Part shown: piece by piece, positions 1,188 through 62,556 of the stretch
Layout of the letters: every line of letters begins with the position of its first letter
Numbering within the stretch: position 1 is the first letter of the stretch
Virus genome (UHGV): UHGV-1558314
Reading direction: 5' to 3' (one strand)
Length of the DNA: 64,000 nucleotides
Source: a virus
Made by a program: the position numbers and the translations under genes
The notes under the pieces: model-generated
The model's input: only the letters and a program-made list of their open reading frames with translations
The model's database searches: none
Told to the model about the DNA's origin: nothing

Positions 1188-1802
1188 CTAAGTTTGGTAC
1201 ATTAAAGTATATAGATGTCTGCCAAATTTGTTGCCATATCGTTTCTGTTTAGTTTCAAGTGCTTTGTCAATATTTATGATGCCTCTTGTACCATGTTCTT
1301 TTTCACGTTTAGCTAAAATTGTTTGCATGTCGCCAAGTTTGTTGCCATATCGTTGCAATTTAGTTTCATGCATTTTTGCAATATTTGTCCAACTATCACC
1401 ATAATGTTGTCTATGTGTTGCAGCGCAACGTGCTTTGTCACCAAACATGTGTCCAAACTTTGCTAAACGACGCTCAACAAATTTTTGCATGTCACCCATG
1501 CCATTACCATATCGTTTCTGCTTAGTTGCAACAGCCTTTTGCATATTGACACCTCGATAGCCATAACGCATTTCTATTGTTGTAGTAATTTTATCACTGA
1601 TGACTTTTGATTGCTGAGCATACTCAAAACCATATTTACGCAAGCAGCCAATTCGCTTATTATATTTCAAACGAATTTTACCATGAGATGTTTGCTTTGG
1701 GGCATACCATTCATATGGCGTTTCTGCAATCAATTTATCGCGTTCAGCTTCAAGTTCTTTTATTCGAGCTTCAAGAGCATCGCCAGTTAGTCGTTCAGCC
1801 AT
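1188..1802 (-). CDS. paralog family member A (tandem basic repeat protein, lacks the C-terminal domain)
   Basis: N-terminus MAERLTGDALEARIKELEAERDKL is near-identical to the ORF at 14031..15398; repeats K-x-x-RYGN-x-x-GDMQ; start taken at internal Met to avoid overlap with terminase. Confidence 0.5.
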   Translation of the reverse strand: MAERLTGDALEARIKELEAERDKLIAETPYEWYAPKQTSHGKIRLKYNKRIGCLRKYGFEYAQQSKVISDKITTTIEMRYGYRGVNMQKAVATKQKRYGNGMGDMQKFVERRLAKFGHMFGDKARCAATHRQHYGDSWTNIAKMHETKLQRYGNKLGDMQTILAKREKEHGTRGIINIDKALETKQKRYGNKFGRHLYTLMYQT

Positions 1803-6575: not shown

Positions 6576-6944
6576 TTATTTGATTGCACGTTCAAACATT
6601 CTGCAGCACCAGTCTTTATATGCAGGATTGCCCTTAACATCTGCTCGGAATGCACAGTTGATAAGAGTCTTCTCTTCATCAACAAAGCATGCATAACGAC
6701 AGTTTGCACAGCAACGAGCATCTTCATGTTTCATACAGAATGCTGCGCATGTCATGTCATCTTCTGTGTTGCGAATTGTTTTTGTTGGCGTGTATTCATA
6801 AGTGCACTGACAAATGCCATTATGCTCACGATGAAAGAAGCAATTTTTGCAAACATGTGCAACTTCTTCAACTGGCGCTGATGCTGCATATGTTTGTTCT
6901 TGCTCTACTGCAGGCTGTGCAGCAGCTTTAGTCTTTTTTGCCAT
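6576..6944 (-). CDS. cysteine-rich small protein (possible metal-binding regulator)
   Basis: Start taken at MAKKTKAAA; the longer ORF-track N-terminus translates the intergenic tandem repeat. About 16 Cys in 123 aa. Confidence 0.5.
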   Translation of the reverse strand: MAKKTKAAAQPAVEQEQTYAASAPVEEVAHVCKNCFFHREHNGICQCTYEYTPTKTIRNTEDDMTCAAFCMKHEDARCCANCRYACFVDEEKTLINCAFRADVKGNPAYKDWCCRMFERAIK

Positions 6945-6975
6945 TGTATCAAATGTTTGTATTTGTATTTGTAAG

Positions 6976-7080
6976 TTGTTTTGATGCAAAATGCAAAACA
7001 ATATAAAATTGTTTTGATGCAAAATGCAAAACAATATAAAATTGTTTTGATGCAAAATGCAAAACAATATGTTGTTTTGA
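6976..7080. repeat. 33-bp direct repeat array (about 3.3 copies)
   Basis: ttgttttgatgcaaaatgcaaaacaatataaaa repeated head to tail; unit is partly palindromic (ttgttttg...caaaacaa); immediately upstream of the Cys-rich gene. Confidence 0.8.
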
Positions 7081-14014: not shown

Positions 14015-14043
14015 TAATACTACTGACTTGTCAATTTTGCACA
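14015..14043 (-). promoter_or_regulatory. recurrent bipartite promoter-like motif
   Basis: ataatactactgacttgtcaattttgcac upstream of the clamp loader start. Confidence 0.45.
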
Positions 14044-15398
14044 GCATGACCACAGTCATAAACTGCAACATAGCCAGCATCAATCATCTCTTGCTCATCT
14101 TGTCCGCAGTCTTCAATATGTTTGCCTGTCTTGTAATTATGCCAATGCTTATGTATTACATAGTCTTTTGCAAAGTGGGGATTTTTTGACATATCTGTAC
14201 TATCAATTGGTAAATGTTCGATATGTCTACGAATAATATCAATAACGTAGTCTACATTATCCCAATCCCATATTGATACGCAAACAAAACCGTGCTGCAA
14301 TGCAACTAATGTTTTTGTTAAATGATATGTTGGCTGCTTTAGATGCAATGGATTATTGTAATTTGTGCGACCCACACTATATTGAAATGTATATGTGCTA
14401 TTATGTGTAAATGACGGATTGACTTCTATTAACAATTTGCATGTCTGTGTAATATATGACAAATCATATGTGTATGCGTTTATATGAAAGCTGTCAAGTT
14501 CAAATGTAATGCCAAGCGCTTGCTGTAATTTTGATTGCCACCATTTGTTAATTGCAGAAGTCATGCGCCCATTATGTTTAATGCATTGAGGCAATTGGCA
14601 TGCCCAATCAACGCCATACAATGTTTTACATGTCTGTGTAGCTGTACGCATATTAAATGCTCTATAGCCATACAATTTGTGTCGTGTTTGACAACCCTGT
14701 TCATGGTTTACATATAATGGGTTGCCATAACGTTCAAGTTTTGTTTGCTCAATTTTGTGTTTATCGCCAAACGCATTGCCATATTTGCGCAATTTTGTAT
14801 GAATTTGTTTATCTACAGGGCCTTGCGGATAGCCATGTCGCTCAATGTTTGTTTTACGACACTTGTCGACATTGTATTTAGACTTACCATATCGTTCAAG
14901 CTTTGTTTGCTGAATTTTATCAATGTCGCCAAACGCATTGCCGTATTTTTGCTGCTTTGTTTGCAACATTTGTTTAACATTGCCTTGCGGATAGCCATAC
15001 TTTAGCATATTCTTTTGTCTAATCTTAGATTTATCACCAAAGATTGAGCCATCATACAATACGCGTTTAGTTGCCATCATTTGTTGCACATTGCCGCTTT
15101 TATTGCCATACTTTTCAATCTTCGTATTAAGCATTTTTTGAACATTGCCATGTCCGCTGCCATAACGCGCTTTTCGTGTATCAATCATTTGCACTTTAAC
15201 TGTGTCAATTTGCAATGGATTTTCAACACCGTGTTTGCGCAAGCAGCCAATACGTTTGTTGAAAGCTAAACGAATTTTGCCATGCGACGTTTTACATGGC
15301 GCATATCTCACAAAGGGTGTTTCTGCAAGCAATCTGTCTCTTTCCTCTTCAAGTTCTTTTATGCGAGCTTCAAGAGCTTCTCCAGTTAATGGTTCCAT
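14031..15398 (-). CDS. paralog family member B (repeat array plus conserved C-terminal domain)
   Basis: About ten ~19-aa repeats K-x-x-(R/K)YGN-x-x-G-(D/N); C-terminal motifs LLIEVNPSFTHNST, VSIWDWD, VYDCGH shared with the ORFs at 55475..56494, 56599..57621 and 59771..61060. Confidence 0.6.
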   Translation of the reverse strand: MEPLTGEALEARIKELEEERDRLLAETPFVRYAPCKTSHGKIRLAFNKRIGCLRKHGVENPLQIDTVKVQMIDTRKARYGSGHGNVQKMLNTKIEKYGNKSGNVQQMMATKRVLYDGSIFGDKSKIRQKNMLKYGYPQGNVKQMLQTKQQKYGNAFGDIDKIQQTKLERYGKSKYNVDKCRKTNIERHGYPQGPVDKQIHTKLRKYGNAFGDKHKIEQTKLERYGNPLYVNHEQGCQTRHKLYGYRAFNMRTATQTCKTLYGVDWACQLPQCIKHNGRMTSAINKWWQSKLQQALGITFELDSFHINAYTYDLSYITQTCKLLIEVNPSFTHNSTYTFQYSVGRTNYNNPLHLKQPTYHLTKTLVALQHGFVCVSIWDWDNVDYVIDIIRRHIEHLPIDSTDMSKNPHFAKDYVIHKHWHNYKTGKHIEDCGQDEQEMIDAGYVAVYDCGHAVQN

Positions 15399-26759: not shown

Positions 26760-26830
26760 GCAATACGACAGGACTCGAACCTGCGACCTCGGATTGGACG
26801 TCCGCGCTCTTACCGCTGAGCTACGTATTC
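26760..26830 (-). tRNA. tRNA-like, possibly Gly(TCC); non-canonical anticodon arm
   Basis: Canonical D-arm TAGCTCAGCGGTAAGAGC and T-arm GCAGG-TTCGAGT-CCTGT, but the anticodon stem pairs poorly (loop CGTCCAA) and there is a G-G at 1:72. May be a degenerate tRNA. Confidence 0.4.
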
Positions 26831-26920
26831 TTATCAATTGACTGCACTGCAATGCAATCAATCGCGCCAATGACACCTGACGCATAATTGCAGTTATGCG
26901 TAACAATTCAAATGTCATTG

Positions 26921-26993
26921 AGCCAACTGCAGGAATCGAACCTGTAACCTGCTGATTACAAATCAGCTGCTCTGCCAATTGAGCTAAGTTGGC
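26921..26993 (-). tRNA. tRNA-Thr (anticodon TGT)
   Basis: Folded by hand: acceptor GCCAACT/AGTTGGC, D-arm GCTC-AATTGGCA-GAGC, anticodon stem GCTGA/TCAGC with loop TTTGTAA, T-loop TTCGATT. Confidence 0.8.
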
Positions 26994-27075
26994 ATAAAGT
27001 CGTTGGGCCATTGCAACCCAAACCTATCATCTTTGCATAGCCAAAGATGCAAGCGCTCTCTTACACCACGACTTG

Positions 27076-27147
27076 TAGCCGAACTTGGAGTCGAACCAAG
27101 CTTTCGAGAATGAAAATCTCGCGTCCTAACCGATAGACGAAACGGCC
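27076..27147 (-). tRNA. tRNA-Glu (anticodon TTC)
   Basis: D-arm TTCGTCTATCGGTTAGGAC resembles bacterial tRNA-Glu; anticodon stem CGAGA/TCTCG with loop TTTTCAT; T-arm CTTGG-TTCGACT-CCAAG; two T-T mismatches at the base of the acceptor stem. Confidence 0.6.
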
Positions 27148-27330
27148 AAGAGCAGTTCAAGTCTGCAGCATTGAACTGCGGAAGCAATGCCTGTACGGGC
27201 AACCAATTGTGCAGATACAGCGACATTGCAAAATCACACCGAACCAAGTTTGTGGCTCTTCTGTCTCATAAAAACAGTAATCATTACACTTGGCACCAAT
27301 GATTCTGATGTAAAAATCGGTGTGTTATGC

Positions 27331-27413
27331 GGAAAGCGGAGGTGTCGATCCCCATACGCGAACGTACTCACGGTTTTCAAGACCGGATTTGCAGCCGTGC
27401 AAATTCACTTTCC
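27331..27413 (-). tRNA. tRNA-Ser-like (anticodon TGA), long variable arm, atypical D-arm and T-loop
   Basis: Acceptor GGAAAGT/GCTTTCC; anticodon arm CCGGTCTTGAAAACCG identical to E. coli tRNA-Ser(UGA); variable-arm hairpin GTACG-TTCG-CGTAT; T-loop ATCGACA. Confidence 0.45.
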
Positions 27414-27608
27414 ATAAAACATTGCATAAGCATTCTTATCTCTTGATGAGACCAAGTAGCTAATTTGGCAAGTTTGTTATATCTATCGTGACTGTTGCAG
27501 TTTATTTGTCACTCAATACACAAAATTTTCGAACATTCATTGACAGCACTGCAATATCGCTTTTTTAAGCTCAGCCATCAATGTATTTATGCAATGTATA
27601 ACAATTCG

Positions 27609-27690
27609 TAGCCAAACCGGGACTTGAACCCAGACTCCTAATGGAACAACATTTTGAGTGTTGCGTGTCTACCAATTCCACCATTTGGCC
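27609..27690 (-). tRNA. tRNA-Leu (anticodon CAA)
   Basis: Acceptor GGCCAAA/TTTGGCT, D-arm GTG-GAATTGGTAGA-CAC typical of tRNA-Leu, anticodon stem CAACA/TGTTG with loop CTCAAAA, long variable arm, T-loop TTCAAGT. Confidence 0.8.
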
Positions 27691-27794
27691 ATTTGCAAAT
27701 GCAAGCTGTTTCATAACTGTTTGCATTTGCTGTCGTAAATTTGTATTGTTTAGCCTCTAAAACATGATTCAACTAATCAAAAACCAGAGAATTG

Positions 27795-27867
27795 TCGAGA
27801 ATGTGCGATTTGAACGCCAATTATACGTCCCAAACGTATCGTGTTACCGGATTACACTACATTCTCG
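27795..27867 (-). tRNA. tRNA-Pro (anticodon TGG)
   Basis: Perfect anticodon stem ATACG/CGTAT with loop TTTGGGA; D-loop AATCCGGTAA; T-loop TTCAAAT; ends uncertain by 1 nt. Confidence 0.65.
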
Positions 27868-27874
27868 TTAATTG

Positions 27875-27946
27875 TTGAACCGTCTGGACTCGAACCAGAA
27901 ATGGCTGAACCAAAATCAGCTGTGTTACCGATTACACCACGATTCA
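27875..27946 (-). tRNA. tRNA-Gln (anticodon TTG)
   Basis: Acceptor TGAATCG/CGGTTCA (one G-T), D-arm GTGT-AATCGGTA-ACAC, anticodon stem GCTGA/TCAGC with loop TTTTGGT, T-arm TCTGG-TTCGAGT-CCAGA. Confidence 0.75.
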
Positions 27947-53269: not shown

Positions 53270-55222
53270 CTACTCTGCTTTTGTTGCTTGCATCAGTTCA
53301 GCAAAGCTTACAGTGTAAGCATCTTCACCAACAGTCACATATGCTGCATCAACATTGGAGTCATTGCCTGTGTATGTAACCAAGGTGCCTGCAGGAATTT
53401 CTACACCGTCAATTGTTCGCATCGAATTGACAAGCTTATATGTCTTGTTGTCTTCGAAGTTCTCATTGACATATGCGGCAGCAATCATTGTTGAACGCTT
53501 ACGAGATGCAGACTCATTGACAAAGCTTGCGCCAACAAGTTCTGACAGCTTCTTCTTTGTTGCTGCAGAACACTTGTCATATGCAATGTCAATTGCAAGG
53601 TCTACATCGCCAAGTTCCTTTGCAATGAGTTCATCAATCTGAGACAGCTTCTTGTCATCTTTGACAGCGACAAAATTCATTGCAAACTTGCGAGCGTTGT
53701 CTGACAATGATTCATCAATGTTCCACTGTTTCATCAATGTCTGCTTCAGTACCTTGTCAAGTTCCGACCAGTCCTTATCTGCAAGAGTAGTTGCATCAAA
53801 GTCTTCATTGCTGAACTGCTTCAGCACTTTGACTTTGTCATCATGTGACAATGCTGACCACTTGTTTGCAGCGTCTTCAGCAGATTCAAGCAGAGGCTTG
53901 ATTGCATCTTTGAGTTCTTGCGGCCAAGTTTCAGGCGCTTTGAGCAGCATCTCAGATGAGTTGTACTTAAGCATGTCGGTCATGATTGCAAGCTTAACAT
54001 TGTTAGCTTTCTCCTCAGGTGACAGAGCTTTGAACTTTTCAGCCCAGTCTTCAGATTCAGTCACGATTGATACTGGCTTTGCAAAACCAGCGACAAAGAC
54101 AAGCTTATACATGATGTTCGTCATGAATGAACAAACTGCATCAATATCAGACTGAGTTGCTGCAGATTGAGCATCACGAATGTTAAGCAATGCTTGACGA
54201 AGAGACATAATGCCTACAACAGGGTCAGACCATGTCAATACAACTGAACTATCGATTGTGATGCCCTTGTCAAATCGCATATTTTCTGCAATGCGGTCAG
54301 CAAGTTCAGGCAGTTCAGTGTAGTACTGCTCAAGTGCTGCATGTGTAGCAGGAATAGAAACTTTTGCAGCATCAAATGGGTTATTGATGTGCATAACATG
54401 TGCAGTTTGAATTGACTGCATCAGCATCGACACTACTGCAGATTCTATTGCAACATCATCTGCAGCAGCTTCATCAAGATTTGCAATTTTTAGCAATGCC
54501 TTTTTGTCTGCATCTGACAATCGCAGCCAAATGTATTCCCATTGACTGTTTGCATCATAGCCACGGTCAGTAGCAAACTTGGTGAGTTCTGCAGATTTCT
54601 TTGCTGCGTCATCGTCATCAAGCCAATCCAAGAATGCTTTCAGTTTGTCGTCAAATGCTTCATTGACAAATGACGCCATCGCATTTTGCAACAAATATTG
54701 ATGGTCTCGTACTGGTGACTCAACAATTTCAAAGCCTTCAAGAGACTTTGGCGAGTCAGTTGCTGAACCAGCTTCAAGACACTTCTTTGATGCATTGTCA
54801 ATGACAAACCACATCTTTTGTGCTTTGAGTGCAATGTAAGTCTTGTCTTTTGATTGCTGAACAGTCATGTTGTCAAGAGCCAATGCACTGATTGGCAAAT
54901 TCTTGACTGCTGACTTGTCAAGTGCTTCATTGACTGCTACATTGTCATCACTCATTAACTGAGTATTTGCAGCAAATGTTGCAGAATCAATGCTAAGCTC
55001 TTTGCCATCGGGCATAGCGAACTTAACTGCATCTGCAACATCAAGCACTTGCACCATGGTGCCTGCTTCGACTTTGTCGTCACCAACAGCGAACTCAGTT
55101 ACAACCTGATATGCTTTGTTAGCTTCAACAGTCTCAACAGACTCCATAATGAACTTTGCTGTGCTGCAAGAGATTTTGTGCTTTTTCATGTTCATGTATG
55201 AATTTGAGTGTTTGTTGTTCAT
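53270..55222 (-). CDS. hypothetical acidic protein (possible prohead scaffold or other virion protein)
   Basis: 650-aa D/E/K/A-rich ORF located in the capsid gene neighbourhood. Confidence 0.45.
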   Translation of the reverse strand: MNNKHSNSYMNMKKHKISCSTAKFIMESVETVEANKAYQVVTEFAVGDDKVEAGTMVQVLDVADAVKFAMPDGKELSIDSATFAANTQLMSDDNVAVNEALDKSAVKNLPISALALDNMTVQQSKDKTYIALKAQKMWFVIDNASKKCLEAGSATDSPKSLEGFEIVESPVRDHQYLLQNAMASFVNEAFDDKLKAFLDWLDDDDAAKKSAELTKFATDRGYDANSQWEYIWLRLSDADKKALLKIANLDEAAADDVAIESAVVSMLMQSIQTAHVMHINNPFDAAKVSIPATHAALEQYYTELPELADRIAENMRFDKGITIDSSVVLTWSDPVVGIMSLRQALLNIRDAQSAATQSDIDAVCSFMTNIMYKLVFVAGFAKPVSIVTESEDWAEKFKALSPEEKANNVKLAIMTDMLKYNSSEMLLKAPETWPQELKDAIKPLLESAEDAANKWSALSHDDKVKVLKQFSNEDFDATTLADKDWSELDKVLKQTLMKQWNIDESLSDNARKFAMNFVAVKDDKKLSQIDELIAKELGDVDLAIDIAYDKCSAATKKKLSELVGASFVNESASRKRSTMIAAAYVNENFEDNKTYKLVNSMRTIDGVEIPAGTLVTYTGNDSNVDAAYVTVGEDAYTVSFAELMQATKAE

Positions 55223-55277
55223 ATGATATGATATATATCAAGTGCAGCAATTGAACAGATTGCAAAAACAATGCTCA

Positions 55278-55307
55278 GACTGTAAAGTCTGAGCATTGAA
55301 CGACTAA
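55278..55307 (-). terminator. hairpin terminator
   Basis: caatgctcagact / gtctgagcattg with T-run on the minus strand. Confidence 0.5.
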
Positions 55308-55474: not shown

Positions 55475-56494
55475 CTATTGCTTATGCCAGCCATATGATG
55501 CCTGACCAGCATCATACACTTCTACAAAACCATGGTCGTACATAAAATCTTCATTACGAGTGCCCTTGCCCCCATTAGTACCAAGAATACGGTCTGCACC
55601 ATGCATAAGCAGCATATTATTTGTGATATGTTGCTTTGTCAGCATATTGAACCAATGTTTGCTATATGACAAGCCAAGACCATCAAAGCCCAGCTTTGTG
55701 TACACGCCACCATCAAACTTGCTCAAATCACAATACGACAACACAGATTCAGGGTCATATGTCTTGATAAAGTGCTTGAATATGCGTTCGGCGCCACCTA
55801 CGACTTTTGTTGCTGCACAAAGACGCAGTAGTTCATACTGATATCGCTTATTGTATCGTGGACGACCAAATGTCATAAGCTGATGTATGACATAGCCGCC
55901 AAGCAATTCAAGTGGATGGCCTTCAATCAACGCAAGATTGATAAAATTGCCTGAGCACTTGCCTTGCAAATGATGTTCAATCAAAAATTGATTTGCAGTA
56001 TACTTGTCAATTTCAACAACTTTAAGCTTGCGAGCATATACAATCTTTGATTTGTCTACGATTTGATGCTTGATGTGATTGATAACTTTCTTGGCGTCAT
56101 CCCAATCCCACACATGAATGCAATGAAAGCCTGCAGCTTTTGCAATGTCTGTTTTCTTTGCATGAATATCACAAGGCAAATGCGAATCTTTTGCAGCATG
56201 CATAAATAGATGCTCAAATGAATGCGTGCTATTATGTGAAAATGTGGGATTGATGTTGATGACGATGTTGTCATGTCTAAAATCGAAGACTTCATCACCA
56301 ATAACAAAGTTGCGCTCAAAATCTATACCGACATGTTTGAGTAATACTTGATGCCACACATCTTTATAGGCTGATTCAAGATTGCTTAGCTCATCACAGT
56401 TTGCAATATTTTTGTAACGTTGAATAGCAGCATCAAAGTCAAGATTGACTTCAGCGTAGTCTGCATTTTTATCGTAGTGAAATTTTGAGCTCAT
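55475..56494 (-). CDS. paralog family member C (conserved domain without the repeat array, extra inserted region)
   Basis: NINPTFSHNST, CIHVWDWDD, FVEVYDAGQ; FLIEHHLQG region between them; start taken at MSSKFHYD (ATG at 56494). Confidence 0.55.
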   Translation of the reverse strand: MSSKFHYDKNADYAEVNLDFDAAIQRYKNIANCDELSNLESAYKDVWHQVLLKHVGIDFERNFVIGDEVFDFRHDNIVININPTFSHNSTHSFEHLFMHAAKDSHLPCDIHAKKTDIAKAAGFHCIHVWDWDDAKKVINHIKHQIVDKSKIVYARKLKVVEIDKYTANQFLIEHHLQGKCSGNFINLALIEGHPLELLGGYVIHQLMTFGRPRYNKRYQYELLRLCAATKVVGGAERIFKHFIKTYDPESVLSYCDLSKFDGGVYTKLGFDGLGLSYSKHWFNMLTKQHITNNMLLMHGADRILGTNGGKGTRNEDFMYDHGFVEVYDAGQASYGWHKQ

Positions 56495-56598
56495 GTGTAT
56501 AATTTGTATGAGATTATTGTACAACATGCAAATGCATGTTGCATTTGATGCAAAGTACTGCGTACACAACATAAAGTACAAGTTTGCTTTTGACAGAC

Positions 56599-57621
56599 TT
56601 ACTTTGTATTGCTACGCGTCATTGTTAAATGACCGCAATCATACACATCAACTTCTGTTTTGCCAAGCATGCATGTATGACAATTTATTTTGAAATCTAC
56701 TGCAGTGTAGTCAGGATAGTTTAGCGGAGATTCTTTTGACAAATCAATTTCAATTGTGTCAGTAGTTTTAAGTTGTTCAGTGCCTGCAATGATATCTGCA
56801 ATGAGATTGATAACATCTTCTTGTGAATCCCAGTCAAACACAGTTATGCAACGATAGCCTGCATCAAGCGCAAGTTTTGTTTTGTTGTAATGGTATTGCG
56901 CATCAAGTGGCTCATTTTTGTCAGACAATTTTGTTGCATATCGAAACCCAAGCGTGCTGTTATGCGATACGGTAGGATTGATTTCTACAAGCAATTTATG
57001 TGTGCCATCAATATCATATGACAAATCATATGAATAACGTTGAATTCTAACTGCGTCAAGCTGCATGTCAATGTGTAAATGACGCAATATTATTGCATGC
57101 CAATGCTTGTTGATGCCCGATATTATATTTGCAGCTTCCATGCATTTTGGATGCATTACAAAATACGGCACGCCAAAGCGTTCTTGTATTGTTTTGTATG
57201 CTTTTGCATTAGAATCTTTACCATAAATGCTGCCATAACGCTTAAGCTTTGTAGCAATCAACTTGTCTATGTCACCCATAGCATTGCCAAAGCGCTCAAT
57301 CTTATGCTGTTTAATGGCATCTTTGTCGCCAAACATATGACCATATCGAGACATCTTTGTTGCTTTGACTGCATTGATGTTGCAACCTGCACCATATCGA
57401 GCATGCATAGTTTGCATGCGTTTAGCAATGTGCTCTTGTGATTGCTTAATTTGTTCGGTGCCAAATTTGCGCAAATTATTGATACGCTTAGTAACATCTT
57501 GTTTAATGACTGAATGCGTGGTTGTTCGCTTGCCAAGTCTTACACATTCTGTAGTTTTGAGCAATGTATCTCGTTCAAACTCAATTTGTGCAATTCGTGC
57601 AACAATTTCTTTAGATGTCAT
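56599..57621 (-). CDS. paralog family member D
   Basis: Repeats KxxRYG...GD plus LLVEINPTVSHNST, CITVFDWD, VDVYDCGH; start taken at MTSKEIVARI (ATG at 57621). Confidence 0.6.
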   Translation of the reverse strand: MTSKEIVARIAQIEFERDTLLKTTECVRLGKRTTTHSVIKQDVTKRINNLRKFGTEQIKQSQEHIAKRMQTMHARYGAGCNINAVKATKMSRYGHMFGDKDAIKQHKIERFGNAMGDIDKLIATKLKRYGSIYGKDSNAKAYKTIQERFGVPYFVMHPKCMEAANIISGINKHWHAIILRHLHIDMQLDAVRIQRYSYDLSYDIDGTHKLLVEINPTVSHNSTLGFRYATKLSDKNEPLDAQYHYNKTKLALDAGYRCITVFDWDSQEDVINLIADIIAGTEQLKTTDTIEIDLSKESPLNYPDYTAVDFKINCHTCMLGKTEVDVYDCGHLTMTRSNTK

Positions 57622-57706
57622 TTTTAATAGCATATTGATAATTATACAACATACAAATGAGTTTTGCATTTTTGATGTAGCAATTGCTTGCACAGTTTGC
57701 AAAAAA

Positions 57707-57738
57707 GAACCGCTTGCAATCTAATTGCAAGCGGTTCA
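57707..57738 (-). terminator. rho-independent terminator
   Basis: gaaccgcttgcaat / attgcaagcggttc followed by T6 on the minus strand. Confidence 0.6.
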
Positions 57739-57966
57739 ATGAATACGTTTGTCAGAAACTGTCAATGGTGCAATCGCTTGAAGAGTTAACTGAACAACTT
57801 GTTGATGCGATTGCTGCATTGGTGACTACCAAGCAGCCCATTGAACATTGGATTCGACATCAACGTCTTTGTGGTTGTTGTTGAACTCCCCAAGCCAGCA
57901 AGTATCATTTAGCAAGTTTCCAAACTTAACGTACTTGTCGTTCCCCGGCTTGGGTGGTGCAGGTTG

Positions 57967-59682
57967 TCAAATCCAGCCGTAGTCGCTGTGGATAGCGAAG
58001 GTGAGGTAAGCCAACTCGGGATACATACCCGTCTCCGCGAGAGCGTAATCCGACTCAATCAGCAACTTTGGCGCTGCTGTTCCTTCGGCTGTTAATTCCA
58101 CACTTGATGCAAGGTCATATGGCATGAATACACATCCCTGGTTGACATTCTCTACGTCAACACCGTCAGCAGTCTTGTTCGTACGAAGAACGAGAACAGT
58201 GTTGTCGTTCAGCGGCTGCTTAGGATTGCAATAGATTTTAATGCCAGCAAGGTCACCTGCGTAATACAGGTTTTTGTTGTCCTGTACCAGCGTATTGTCA
58301 AGAGCTGCAACAAAGTTTTTCTGAGCCTTAATTGCAACCAAGGCAATCGTATTGACCACAGCAGCATCACCAGCACCGAAACGCGACAGGTTGCCAATGA
58401 TTGCCGAAGCAGCCAGGATACGCGTTGCGATACGAGCCTGACGGGTAATCTGGTTCTCAGCCGAGCTGTTCGATTCAGCGTTCGGAACCATGCCGAATTC
58501 AGCCGTACGGTCTACACCCATCTTGTCGACAAATGCAGGAGCTTGGAATTCCGAGAATGCCTTGGCAGTCGAACCAGCGTAGCCAATGTACAAGTTCAGG
58601 TTGTAGCCCTGAGCAGCCAACAGCTGAGCATGTGTCGTAACACCAAGTGCACGCATGCGCTTCAGACCATTGTCATTGATTGACTGCGTGATTTCATTCT
58701 GCATTGCATTCTTGATGATTGCAACTGCATCCAAACCGCGAGCACGGAGGTCCTTAACCTGGCGACGAGTCAGAGCGCCCCAAGTCTGGTACGTCTTAAC
58801 TTCGATAGCCTTTGAGAAGGTGCGGAGCTCCAGCATGTTCGGGTTGCCAGCCTCAGCCTCAGAACGAGACATTGGGTTGCCGTCAAGGTCATCCATTGCA
58901 GCGAAGCCGTGGATGTGTTCGTCACCAGCCGAAACCAGGTCGAACATAACCTCAGTCATACCAGTCAGCAAGTCAGTTACAGCACCTGCAGCGTCAACCG
59001 AGTAGATTTTCGATGCAGCCATTGCAACATCAGCCAACGACTTGTCAGGAGCAACAGTCATTGCGCCACCTGCGCCTACAGTGTACACGCCCTCATTGCG
59101 AACTACGAGGTAGCCTGCAACACGCGATACCTGTACAAACGTTACTTTGGCAGCAAGCTCACCAGCAGCTGAACCGCCGATGTACAGAACTTGACCCTTC
59201 TTGAGGCCACGAACCATTGTCTGCGAAGCAACATTGTACAGTTCCTTCCACTTGATGAGGAAGTAGCGAGGACCCTTGGCAACATTCAGCTTGCCGCCAC
59301 CATACACGTAGTCTACATAGTCCAGCTGAACCAGCGGGCTGTAAACAGGAATGGTCGGGAGCAGGTCGAACAGAATCGTGTTGGCTGCGATGTTCATGTT
59401 CAGAGCCAGAACATTGGCAGCTACATCGATTGAACCACGCTTACGCGACGGGTCATGGAACTGTGCTTGCGTGCCTGGGTCAGCAGGGAAAGCGACCGGA
59501 CCTACGCCATTGAGATTCTGCGAATACGTCGACTCAAACGACTCGTTCATATACTGAACGTTCTGAGCGATTGATGCGAGCAGATACTTCTTAGCGGGCG
59601 AGAGCTTGGAGTCAAACGACTCATCAAGAACAGGGCCCCACTTTTTCAGCAATGCATCAATCTGTGTACGTTTTGCGTTCAT
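57967..59682 (-). CDS. major capsid protein (T4 gp23-like)
   Basis: Several segments resemble T4 gp23 as recalled from memory (DALLKKWGPVLDES vs ELLNKWKPLLEGEG; ...IPVYSPLVQLDYVDYVYG; FSKAIEVKTYQ...AVAIIKNAMQNEI); nucleotide composition visibly more GC-rich than neighbours, consistent with a highly expressed gene. Confidence 0.8.
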   Translation of the reverse strand: MNAKRTQIDALLKKWGPVLDESFDSKLSPAKKYLLASIAQNVQYMNESFESTYSQNLNGVGPVAFPADPGTQAQFHDPSRKRGSIDVAANVLALNMNIAANTILFDLLPTIPVYSPLVQLDYVDYVYGGGKLNVAKGPRYFLIKWKELYNVASQTMVRGLKKGQVLYIGGSAAGELAAKVTFVQVSRVAGYLVVRNEGVYTVGAGGAMTVAPDKSLADVAMAASKIYSVDAAGAVTDLLTGMTEVMFDLVSAGDEHIHGFAAMDDLDGNPMSRSEAEAGNPNMLELRTFSKAIEVKTYQTWGALTRRQVKDLRARGLDAVAIIKNAMQNEITQSINDNGLKRMRALGVTTHAQLLAAQGYNLNLYIGYAGSTAKAFSEFQAPAFVDKMGVDRTAEFGMVPNAESNSSAENQITRQARIATRILAASAIIGNLSRFGAGDAAVVNTIALVAIKAQKNFVAALDNTLVQDNKNLYYAGDLAGIKIYCNPKQPLNDNTVLVLRTNKTADGVDVENVNQGCVFMPYDLASSVELTAEGTAAPKLLIESDYALAETGMYPELAYLTFAIHSDYGWI

Positions 59683-59770
59683 GATTGAATTTGTTTGTTA
59701 TTGAAAGTGAAACATATATTTCTGTATAATATGTATAGAACTACTGATATTGATTGAATTGTGAAAATGG

Positions 59771-61060
59771 TCATTTTTCAATCTTTTTGAGCAATGCATG
59801 ACCGCAATCATAGACTTCGACGAAGCCTGAAGCAATCAATGAGTCAACATCTATAGAAGACGTTCGTATAATATGTTCGTGTGTCTTGATATTGTATAGA
59901 TGACACTGAACCCATGTTTTGACGACTTCATAATTTGGATACAATCGAGGGTCTTCTTTTGACAAATCAAGTTCTATGACATCATCAGTTTTGAGCTGCT
60001 CAGTTTTGTTTATGACATCTCTAATGTGCAGCAACATATCATATCTACAATCCCAGTCAAATATTGTTATACATCGATAGCCATTGCGTGCTGCAACATC
60101 TGTTTTGAATTTGTGAGCATACGCAGGTTTGGCGTCATTATCAACAGAATGCCCAGTTATGTAACCAAAGCCCTTTGTTGCATTGTGTGTAACAGTTGGA
60201 TTGATTTCAATTACAACAGCATCTTTTCGCAAATCATATAACAAGTTCTCAATAGGATGCTCAGTAACAAAATCAAGATTGCAAGAATGTTTCAAATCCC
60301 ATTGCCACGACATATTGATGTTTGATGTCAACCTTGCAGATGCTTGCGGCAATTGCAATGCATGTTCTACACCATAGCGTTCACGTAATGTTGCATGAGC
60401 CCTTTGCATATTTTGCATTGCGGGACCCCAATGCTCAAATTTTGTAGCATTTATCTTTGCAATTTTGTCTGGTAGCTTATTTGTACTATCTACACCATAT
60501 TTAATAAGACAACTGATGCGAATATTGTATTGTCGTTTTATTCGAGAATGTGACGTAGCACATCTACTAAATCGTTCAAATGGTGTTGATGCAATCAATG
60601 CATCTCGTTCTGACTCAAGAGCTTTGACATGTTCAAGCACTTCTGCTGGTACATTATCATAGTCAATCACATATTGCTGACGTGGTTGCGTTACATGAGT
60701 TTTGCCGTGTGTCTTAAGCTTATTGATTTGTATGCTATACTTTCTGCGTATATGTGGATGTCTTGATGCATCAGATTGCGCAATTTCATGCTCTCGTTGC
60801 TCTTCAAGTTTAGCTATTTGCTCAACAATAGCTGGTTCAATGTCTGGTTTGTCTGATATGACTATGTTTTTAAGCTCATCAAGACGCTTGTTGAGATATT
60901 TGACACGTCTTGTATATGTTATCTTTGCAACTTGATGGTTTGTATGATGCTTGCCTACTTGCTGTTCTGGTTGATTCAGCGTGTCATCAAGGCGTTGCTT
61001 AGCGAGCTCAAATTCATTATCAAGCCATGCTTTATGCGCATCAAATTCATCTTGTGTCAT
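59771..61060 (-). CDS. paralog family member E
   Basis: N-terminal coiled segment plus VIEINPTVTHNAT, CITIFDWD, FVEVYDCGH. Confidence 0.6.
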   Translation of the reverse strand: MTQDEFDAHKAWLDNEFELAKQRLDDTLNQPEQQVGKHHTNHQVAKITYTRRVKYLNKRLDELKNIVISDKPDIEPAIVEQIAKLEEQREHEIAQSDASRHPHIRRKYSIQINKLKTHGKTHVTQPRQQYVIDYDNVPAEVLEHVKALESERDALIASTPFERFSRCATSHSRIKRQYNIRISCLIKYGVDSTNKLPDKIAKINATKFEHWGPAMQNMQRAHATLRERYGVEHALQLPQASARLTSNINMSWQWDLKHSCNLDFVTEHPIENLLYDLRKDAVVIEINPTVTHNATKGFGYITGHSVDNDAKPAYAHKFKTDVAARNGYRCITIFDWDCRYDMLLHIRDVINKTEQLKTDDVIELDLSKEDPRLYPNYEVVKTWVQCHLYNIKTHEHIIRTSSIDVDSLIASGFVEVYDCGHALLKKIEK

Positions 61061-61127
61061 ATGTGTGTGTAGTGCTTGTTAATCATGTTATATATCATAT
61101 GACAAATTACTACTTTGCATATAACAA

Positions 61128-61154
61128 AAAAGAAGCCAAGTCGTTTTGACTTGG
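61128..61154 (-). terminator. rho-independent terminator
   Basis: gaagccaagtc / gacttggcttc preceded by a6 on the plus strand (T-run on minus). Confidence 0.55.
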
Positions 61155-61189
61155 CTTCAAATTATTCTAACTTATTGATAGTTAATAAG

Positions 61190-61806: not shown

Positions 61807-62556
61807 TCATCGTACAGTGAATGACTTATCATCATCTTCTGTAGTAGTCGGGTCATCAATTACATCGTGGCCAATGCCTGACTCTGGTTCTGGTTCTGGT
61901 TCCGGTTCCGGTTCCGGTTCTGGTTCTGGTTCCGGTTCTGGTTCCGGTTCTGGTTCCGGTTCTGGTTCCGGTTCTGGTTCCGGTTCTGGTTCAGGTTCTG
62001 GTTCCGGTTCCGGTTCTGGTTCTGGTTCCGGTTCTGGTTCCGGCTTGGGCTCTGGCTTGGGCTCTGGCTTGGGCTTCGATGAATAATCAAACATCTTATG
62101 AATCCATTTGCACCACCATTTGCGACATACATGTGTGCCATCATGATAATACGCTTGCAGCTCCATTGGAATTGCATGATATGCTTTGTCATGTGACATA
62201 CCTTTGAATACTCGCAAGTACACATAGCACAAGCAATATGCAATGTAGTACATAAGCGGTGATGCAAGCAGCCACCACCAGCTAAGCACATTGCATGCTG
62301 CAAGCACAATAAGTACAAGCAACGTCGCAAGTGTTACGAAGATGAATTGCTTTGCATGCACAGCTTCATGCTTCAATGTCTCAGAATATCTACTAAGTGT
62401 GTCATCATATGACTTATCACTTCTTATGAAGCACATTGCACACAACGACATTGCATAATAATGTGAAAATGGAATGTATGGCTGGTCGATGACAAGCATT
62501 GGTCCAGCAAACCACAGTCGCCACTGAGATTTCTTTGGCAGTGTTGCAGTTTTCAT
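61807..62556 (-). CDS. membrane protein with HExxH metallopeptidase-like motif and C-terminal (EP)n repeat
   Basis: HEAVHAKQ motif, hydrophobic segments, and about 60 residues of KPEPEPEP... encoded by a hexanucleotide repeat. Confidence 0.5.
61883..62085. repeat. hexanucleotide simple-sequence repeat (ggttc[ct])n inside a CDS
   Basis: About 200 bp of ggttctggttccggttcc... encoding (EP)n on the minus strand; the plus-strand GS-repeat ORF is its frame artefact. Confidence 0.85.

Follow-up and report, generated by a model that had tools for sequence, protein, structure and literature searches.

The stretch of DNA analyzed here comprises 64,000 nucleotides (nt) of the virus genome UHGV-1558314 (hereafter the window, meaning the whole stretch) and encodes a family of five paralogous proteins, which are probably free-standing homing endonucleases of the Hef type. 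The source appears to be a large phage with a T4-like capsid from the human gut, and its host probably belongs to Bacteroidota. An earlier reading of the sequence (the original prediction) had pointed to five related minus-strand open reading frames (ORFs), and all of them were present. They are referred to as copies A to E, as follows.

Copy A (ORF 1188): 1188..1802, minus strand, 204 amino acids (aa); N-terminal helical module and 7 DUF7487-type repeats, without the nuclease domain.
Copy B (ORF 14031): 14031..15398, minus strand, 455 aa, between a clamp loader gene and the gene for a 1199-aa protein; N-terminal module, 11 repeats (~14589-15191), Vsr-like core (~14196-14564) and a short C-terminal beta domain.
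Copy C (ORF 55475): 55475..56494, minus strand, 339 aa; no repeats, Vsr-like core (~56057-56377) and a complete Mom-like GNAT domain (~55478-56047).
Copy D (ORF 56599): 56599..57621, minus strand, 340 aa; N-terminal hairpin, 5 repeats (~57148-57423), Vsr-like core (~56785-57117) and a small C-terminal beta domain.
Copy E (ORF 59771): 59771..61060, minus strand, 429 aa; N-terminal extension, 2 repeats (~60347-60457), Vsr-like core (~59966-60307) and a C-terminal beta domain.

In an all-against-all BLASTP comparison, every pair of copies with a common module matched, the E-values ranging from 7e-14 to 4e-48, and a search of the six-frame translation with profiles built from homologues recovered exactly five family members in the window and no extra fragment. 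Three modules could be distinguished. First, the short basic repeats, which had been proposed to be ~19 aa long with up to about ten copies in copy B, proved to be real: the unit is 18-19 aa long, reads K-x3-T-K-x2-(R/K)-Y-G-N-x2-G-(N/D)-x2-K and occurs 25 times in total, 11 of them in copy B. No tandem repeat was detected in copy B at the DNA level by Tandem Repeats Finder. Second, the motifs of the conserved domain were found in four of the five ORFs (B, C, D and E). The proposed C-terminal location of this domain held only in part, as it is N-terminal in copy C, where an extra domain of ~190 aa follows it, and is absent from copy A, because the latter is truncated relative to a 424-aa orthologue. 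Similarly, the motif (I/V)E(I/V)NP, which had been described as invariant, was retained in the other copies with the domain as IE-(I/V)-NP and reads IN-I-NP in copy C. Third, a helical hairpin (LEARIKELE...TSHxxIK...CLRKxG) lies at the N-terminus of copies A, B and D and was modeled by AlphaFold2 (AF2) with a predicted local distance difference test score above 90. Copy E apparently contains several copies of this module, one of which is clear (weak BLASTP matches and direct reading). Copies A and B are 73% identical over their first 62 residues (45/62), somewhat less than the ~80% originally estimated, and 42% identical overall.

The repeats appear to correspond to the Pfam domain DUF7487 (PF24308). 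Window proteins scored 24.9, 24.1, 15.1 and 22.7 bits against it (gathering threshold 27), and homologues or allelic partners reached 28.4 bits (P0002), 38.2 bits (the E-slot allele of locus L008 in the closest relative, see below) and 210 bits (P0090). Nothing above threshold was obtained for the five window proteins in Pfam and NCBIfam, the sub-threshold matches being to DUF7487 only. No mention of DUF7487 was found in the literature that was searched, and its Pfam entry gives no function. Considering their basic composition and a position like that of the NUMOD and helix-turn-helix (HTH) modules of other homing endonucleases, DUF7487 arrays may bind DNA.

The conserved domain was found to have a Vsr-like restriction-endonuclease-type catalytic fold, i.e., a nuclease fold, as had been supposed, rather than a non-nuclease one; in the fold comparison, RAP domains and various PD-(D/E)xK nucleases came after the leading matches. 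When a profile of the core alone was compared with 177,635 PDB sequences, the homing endonuclease I-Bth0305I (PDB 3r3p) ranked first, although its E-value of 0.12 is by itself not significant. A profile of the full-length family gave only spurious matches to PDB sequences, and individual core sequences, including that of Hef34 from phage NCTC12673, weakly matched Pfam MTES_1575, Vsr and DUF559. In the alignment of the core with 3r3p, the Asp of YD-L corresponds to D196, IEINP to IEVNG (E206 and N208), the His of T-H-N to H213, and the conserved His of YH-x2-K to D222. Analysis of 247 family members revealed near-invariant residues at these positions: Asp in 246, an acidic residue in the next (Glu in 235 and Asp in 8), Asn in 191 with Asp in 45, Pro in 241, His in 246, a second His in 241 and Lys in 234, in addition to a further Asp. 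The catalytic Asp (Vsr D51, I-Bth0305I D196) and the general-base His (Vsr H69, I-Bth0305I H213) are present in copies B, C, D and E, and the E-x-N motif (an acidic residue at the position of Vsr F62 and Asn at that of Vsr H64) is also present, except in copy C and its orthologues. Since the key positions are near-invariant and align to 3r3p, the domain can be regarded as a Vsr-like nuclease with an I-Bth0305I-type active site, and copies B, D and E look nuclease-competent by their residues. The original prediction had already noted that the motifs differ from the classic signatures, and indeed no HNH, GIY-YIG or LAGLIDADG match was obtained for the five proteins in Pfam or NCBIfam at E-values up to 1. 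The AF2 models of the proteins were confident.

Comparison with known phage genes placed the family among the Hef-type enzymes. Copy C, the only copy recognized by PHROGs, matched phrog_3339 ("homing endonuclease", 1.5e-42) and phrog_559 (4.5e-36); Hef34 of Campylobacter phage NCTC12673, which is annotated as similar to the Hef of phage U5, falls in the same PHROGs. The name "HNH endonuclease" carried by phrog_559 is a label only, the fold being Vsr-like. In tblastn searches, copy C matched 341 phage records, many of which were annotated as "Hef-like homing endonuclease". The best matches were "Hef-like/putative homing endonuclease" genes of Campylobacter phages (E-values down to 1e-20, 90-95% coverage, 9-11 matching places per genome), together with those in Vibrio phage VP-1 and Klebsiella phage RaK2. 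Copy B gave one weak tblastn match among 50,697 phage records; copies B, D and E are tied to copy C by BLASTP (7e-14 to 4e-19) as well as by the family profiles. In BFVD, the structural neighbors were viral proteins labeled "endonuclease-like" or "putative homing endonuclease". Hundreds of homologues have the same architecture, and among 1.84 billion cluster representatives (clustered at 50% identity) a profile search identified 12,742 members at an E-value of 1e-3 or lower. Hef ("homing endonuclease-like function") has been presented as a unique endonuclease, with nrdB of T4-related phages as its cleavage target (PMC2988022), the Hef-like enzymes of Dickeya phage LIMEstone1 have been treated as a third group among free-standing endonucleases (PMC3296691), and such genes are routinely annotated in phage genomes (GenBank annotations; PMC3296691). 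The crystal structure of I-Bth0305I, the prototype of this nuclease type, was solved by Taylor et al. (2011; PMC3239194), who named the "EDxHD" family and included the bacteriophage Hef type in it. Thus, the suggestion that these genes represent an undescribed family of repeats plus nuclease has to be withdrawn, as the EDxHD/Hef type (PMC3239194), DUF7487, the fusion to Mom (PMC7824862) and thousands of members were already on record.

We then compared the gene junctions with those of related contigs. In the closest relative (IMG/VR contig IMGVR_UViG_3300045988_152288, 174.6 kb; loci L008, L010 and L012), the flanking DNA is 94-97% identical to the window, whereas protein identity falls to 29-56% between the alleles in slots A, B, D and E. 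A 150-nt identity profile revealed that identity steps abruptly from 97-99% to ~40% at the cassette edges. In slot D (L008; 56% protein identity), nucleotide homology breaks off between 56907 and 57589, a segment encoding the N-terminus, the repeat array and the first half of the nuclease, and the 308 nt left at the 3' end of the gene are 96% identical. In slot E (L008), where the proteins are 29% identical, homology disappears over 59839-61108, and the two alleles agree solely in a few codons at the start and ~22 at the end. In slot B (L010), it is lost over 14158-15272 with ~125 nt kept at each end (40% protein identity). In slot A (L012), it ends at 1712, and the counterpart in the relative is full-length, with ~430 aa and 35% identity. 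Residues 1-194 of copy A, on the other hand, are 97% identical to P0004, a full-length protein of 424 aa encoded next to the terminase gene in three ENA contigs (L001-L003). These contigs are 93% identical to the window, and their nucleotide homology to it ends at 1220; copy A is therefore a 3'-truncated, dead remnant.

For the region before this break (1-1219), neither of the close relatives (L012 and L001) has homologous nucleotide sequence, and the break at 1220 is what truncates copy A. It carries a plus-strand ORF of 327 aa (48-1031) with a lipoprotein-like N-terminus and W-x-x-x-GNG-x-F- repeats, whose sole family match is a weak one to DUF6242, and the GC content is near that of the rest of the window. 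Possible origins of this region are a rearrangement, an assembly junction or an accessory gene restricted to the strain.

Further polymorphism was observed among other relatives. A 181-kb contig among these ENA sequences has additional members at other junctions, and an E allele 95.6% identical to that of the window was found in a human gut metagenome (L029). The slot downstream of the capsid gene varies in both allele and copy number: a contig whose capsid protein is 86% identical (L028) has one full-length member of 605 aa directly after the capsid gene, and two contigs with a 75% identical capsid protein (L026 and L027) have one repeat-less member downstream of this gene and none upstream. 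The more distant relative L009 has the same gene as L026, except that a clean deletion of 352 nt in L009 takes out residues 17-133 and with them the catalytic motifs; the two gut-phage contigs (L009 9717-10886 vs L026 6714-8197) are otherwise identical across the junction. Moreover, paralogues at different loci share tracts of 77-126 nt with 80-98% identity at the 5' and 3' gene ends only, their interiors being unalignable (window 15273-15398 and 14031-14157; L001, L004, L005, L010 and L012), which suggests recombination between paralogues via the conserved gene termini. The genes behave like free-standing homing endonuclease genes: they lie between conserved core genes, as first noticed in the window, and both the occupancy of the slots and their alleles vary among close relatives; strict conservation of synteny was not observed.

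Most of the neighboring core genes could be confirmed. The terminase large subunit (Pfam Terminase_6N, 8e-22), the clamp loader (phrog_168, 2e-58) and a gp23-like major capsid protein were identified, whereas the 1199-aa neighbor of copy B, previously called a helicase, had no match in Pfam or PHROG; by eye it contains a Walker-A-like motif (GSGKT) and a DESH-like motif. As Rfam detected no group I intron near the five genes, they are free-standing. Three terminator-like hairpins lie beside them, as follows.

61132..61158, minus strand: stem of 11-12 bp, then a T run; separates copy E from the 191-aa gene upstream of it.
57707..57737, minus strand: stem of 14 bp, then a T run; separates copy D from the major capsid gene that precedes it.
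55269..55298, minus strand: stem of 13 bp, then a T run; separates copy C from the 650-aa gene downstream of it.

Given these strong hairpins just upstream of copy E, upstream of copy D and after copy C, the genes are located in insulated intergenic pockets. The first hairpin is in the same place as the upstream edge of the exchanged E cassette in the identity profile.

Based on these results, we consider, with a probability of roughly 0.78, that the five ORFs are free-standing Hef-type homing endonuclease genes using a Vsr-like "EDxHD" nuclease. This reading is based on the nuclease fold, the variable N-terminal region, the position at core-gene junctions, the abrupt replacement of alleles and the decayed copies. 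In the corresponding mechanism, the N-terminal helical hairpin and the variable-length array of basic 18-19-aa helix-loop repeats (DUF7487) would bind a long DNA site and tether a Vsr-like, Mg2+-dependent nuclease with the residues D, E-x-N and H (D196, E206/N208 and H213 in I-Bth0305I). The nuclease would then cut the genome of a co-infecting relative that does not have the same allele, and recombinational repair would copy the gene into the cut genome. The copies could represent different stages in the cycle of a selfish element, namely invasion, replacement and decay.

Several points weigh against this reading. Site-specific cleavage and homing are predicted for the copies, and the putative DNA-binding role of DUF7487 is drawn from basic composition and placement. 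The last Asp of the EDxHD set (I-Bth0305I D222, Vsr D97) aligns with a conserved His in this family, so that the chemistry of the nuclease may differ. The junction downstream of the capsid gene was filled in every relative examined, with no clean empty site there, and the 150-nt identity profile displayed no gradient of flank divergence beside the cassettes of the kind expected from co-conversion. Finally, a pure homing model leaves the Mom-like domain of the long forms without explanation.

The last point leads to copy C. The canonical long forms of the family (P0090, P0038 and P0075) consist of an optional HTH, DUF7487 repeats, the Vsr-like core and a Mom-like GNAT domain, in this order, with a V-(E/A)-V-Y-D-C-G strand at the end. 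In the short forms, represented by copies B, D and E, ~130 GNAT residues are absent and a small beta domain and the terminal strand are left. Copy C has Asn where 243 of the 247 members have an acidic residue, a substitution seen only in this copy and its two orthologues, and it is the sole copy conserved with the relative (98% protein identity); it may be nuclease-impaired or domesticated. Family homologues match Pfam Mom (PF25680), whereas copy C itself does not. In a weak hhalign alignment (E-value 0.059), H58, R111, D149 and Y159 of Mom align with the family-invariant H175, R224, D256 and Y265, and no clear counterpart was found for S124 and R151. Mutation of H58, R111, D149 or Y159 abolishes or strongly lowers Mom activity (PMC13219725). 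Fusions of a nuclease with Mom were noted in jumbo phages by Iyer et al. (2021; PMC7824862), who read them as a pair of restriction and modification activities and noted five copies of such restriction endonuclease (REase)-Mom fusions in phage PA5oct.

These features raise the possibility of a restriction-modification-like conflict system, in which the nuclease attacks host DNA or that of superinfecting phages and the Mom-like GNAT protects the adenines of the phage itself, with copies B, D and E as the restriction arm and copy C as the modification arm acting in trans. Such a role was predicted for REase-Mom fusions (PMC7824862) and finds its chief support in the odd traits of copy C, i.e., the missing repeats, the loss of the acidic active-site residue, the intact Mom-like domain (including counterparts of the four Mom activity residues) and its singular conservation between relatives. 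However, copies B, D and E do not have Mom, and long, variable arrays suggest long specific sites rather than short ones of the restriction type. The fast replacement of alleles, the truncation and the internal deletion also resemble the turnover of selfish elements and not a defense function that is kept. Together with the weakness of the Mom alignment, its two unmatched residues and the failure of Pfam Mom to match copy C, these observations make a conflict system an improbable explanation here.

A more speculative extension, which we regard as a long shot, concerns the repeats: DUF7487 arrays might be modular DNA-reading units, such that cassette exchanges re-target the Vsr-like nuclease, and copy C might be a domesticated partner by which target sites in the phage's own DNA are modified or protected. 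If so, each helix-loop repeat of 18-19 aa would contact a fixed step of DNA, and the exchanges would swap the repeat array, sometimes with half of the nuclease, while the gene ends are retained. The part assigned to copy C leans on its altered nuclease site, its intact Mom-like domain and its conservation between relatives.

Very unlikely, in our opinion, is a third scenario, in which the five proteins are domesticated DNA-binding proteins (regulators, or accessory factors of packaging or replication) that do not cut but regulate the adjoining core genes. DNA binding would agree with the basic arrays and the helical N-terminal module, none of the relatives examined had an empty junction downstream of the capsid gene, and copy C is conserved with an altered active site. 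Nevertheless, the active-site residues are near-invariant in the 247 members, copies B, D and E included; non-homologous alleles occupy the same slot between flanks that are ~95% identical, which a conserved regulatory role would not tolerate; and truncated and deleted copies persist. As for a chance similarity of spurious ORFs or a low-complexity artefact, nothing but the basic, repetitive composition speaks for it, and it is already refuted by BLASTP E-values down to 4e-48, by hundreds of homologues with the same architecture, by 12,742 cluster representatives and by the confident AF2 models.

Some other features of the window were also recorded. A cluster of six tRNA genes is located at 26760-27946 (minus strand), and neither group I introns nor other Rfam families were detected in the window as a whole. 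The gene at 61807-62556 (minus strand) encodes a predicted membrane protein of 249 aa with a long (PE)n tract; its counterpart in L008 has 231 aa and a tract of different length, with an identity of only 65-85% over 61902-62201. Downstream of copy C, the gene at 53270-55222 (minus strand) encodes a 650-aa protein with a weak match to DUF5856/phrog_858. Compared with L008 (585 aa), it has an insertion of ~65 aa around 54390-54690, and it is just 30% identical in the clade whose capsid protein is 75% identical. At 6576-7067 (minus strand), a mechanically called ORF starts with FCILHQNNFIL three times in tandem, which indicates a short tandem repeat in the DNA just ahead of a small Cys-rich protein.

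With regard to the homing endonuclease reading, these results settle the annotation of a five-gene family of an uncultured gut phage, which can be placed among the Hef-type, Vsr-like homing endonucleases and not in a new class of nucleases. They also provide a clear natural case in which Hef-type genes at fixed junctions have been exchanged like cassettes, truncated or internally deleted in phages whose flanking DNA is ~95% identical. DUF7487 emerges as a large domain of unknown function that is always placed where homing endonucleases have their DNA-binding modules, and is a reasonable target for DNA-binding work. In addition, the occurrence of short forms without Mom beside a repeat-less, Mom-bearing form with a substituted active site bears on the role of the Mom-like domain.

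The window family can be compared with four known systems. First, the Hef of the T4-related phage U5, Hef34 and F-LimIII, VII, VIII and X of LIMEstone1 are likewise free-standing between conserved genes and often multicopy, and the Hef-like genes have the core motif D...E-x-N-(P/G)-x3-H...YH-x2-K in common with the family. The annotated Hef genes and the window copies are ~27-30% identical, the tie to U5 Hef being through the annotation of Hef34. Hef34 and most homologues carry the Mom-like GNAT, whereas copies B, D and E do not, and copy C differs from the Hef genes in having no N-terminal repeat region. Second, I-Bth0305I (PDB 3r3p) matches the family in its IE(V/I)N(G/P)xxxH motif and in the position of its catalytic Asp, and both are bipartite, with an N-terminal DNA-binding region (putative in the window family) and a C-terminal nuclease. 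However, I-Bth0305I is intron-encoded and has NUMOD2/HTH, whereas the window genes are free-standing with DUF7487 arrays; its final Asp (D222) is His in the family, and the window proteins bear in addition a beta domain at the C-terminus or a complete GNAT domain. Third, in contrast to Vsr and DUF559/MTES_1575 (PDB 1cw0 and 3hrl), the family has neither the zinc site motifs nor the intercalating Trp pair, and Vsr acts in repair in a different domain context, whereas mobility is expected here. Finally, Mom of phage Mu (PDB 8bv8) is a GNAT for tRNA-dependent N6 modification of adenine, and its four activity residues have invariant counterparts in the family. Compared with Mu Mom and the REase-Mom fusions of jumbo phages, the Mom-like domain of the window family is restricted to a single copy out of five, where it is fused to a nuclease whose Glu has been replaced.

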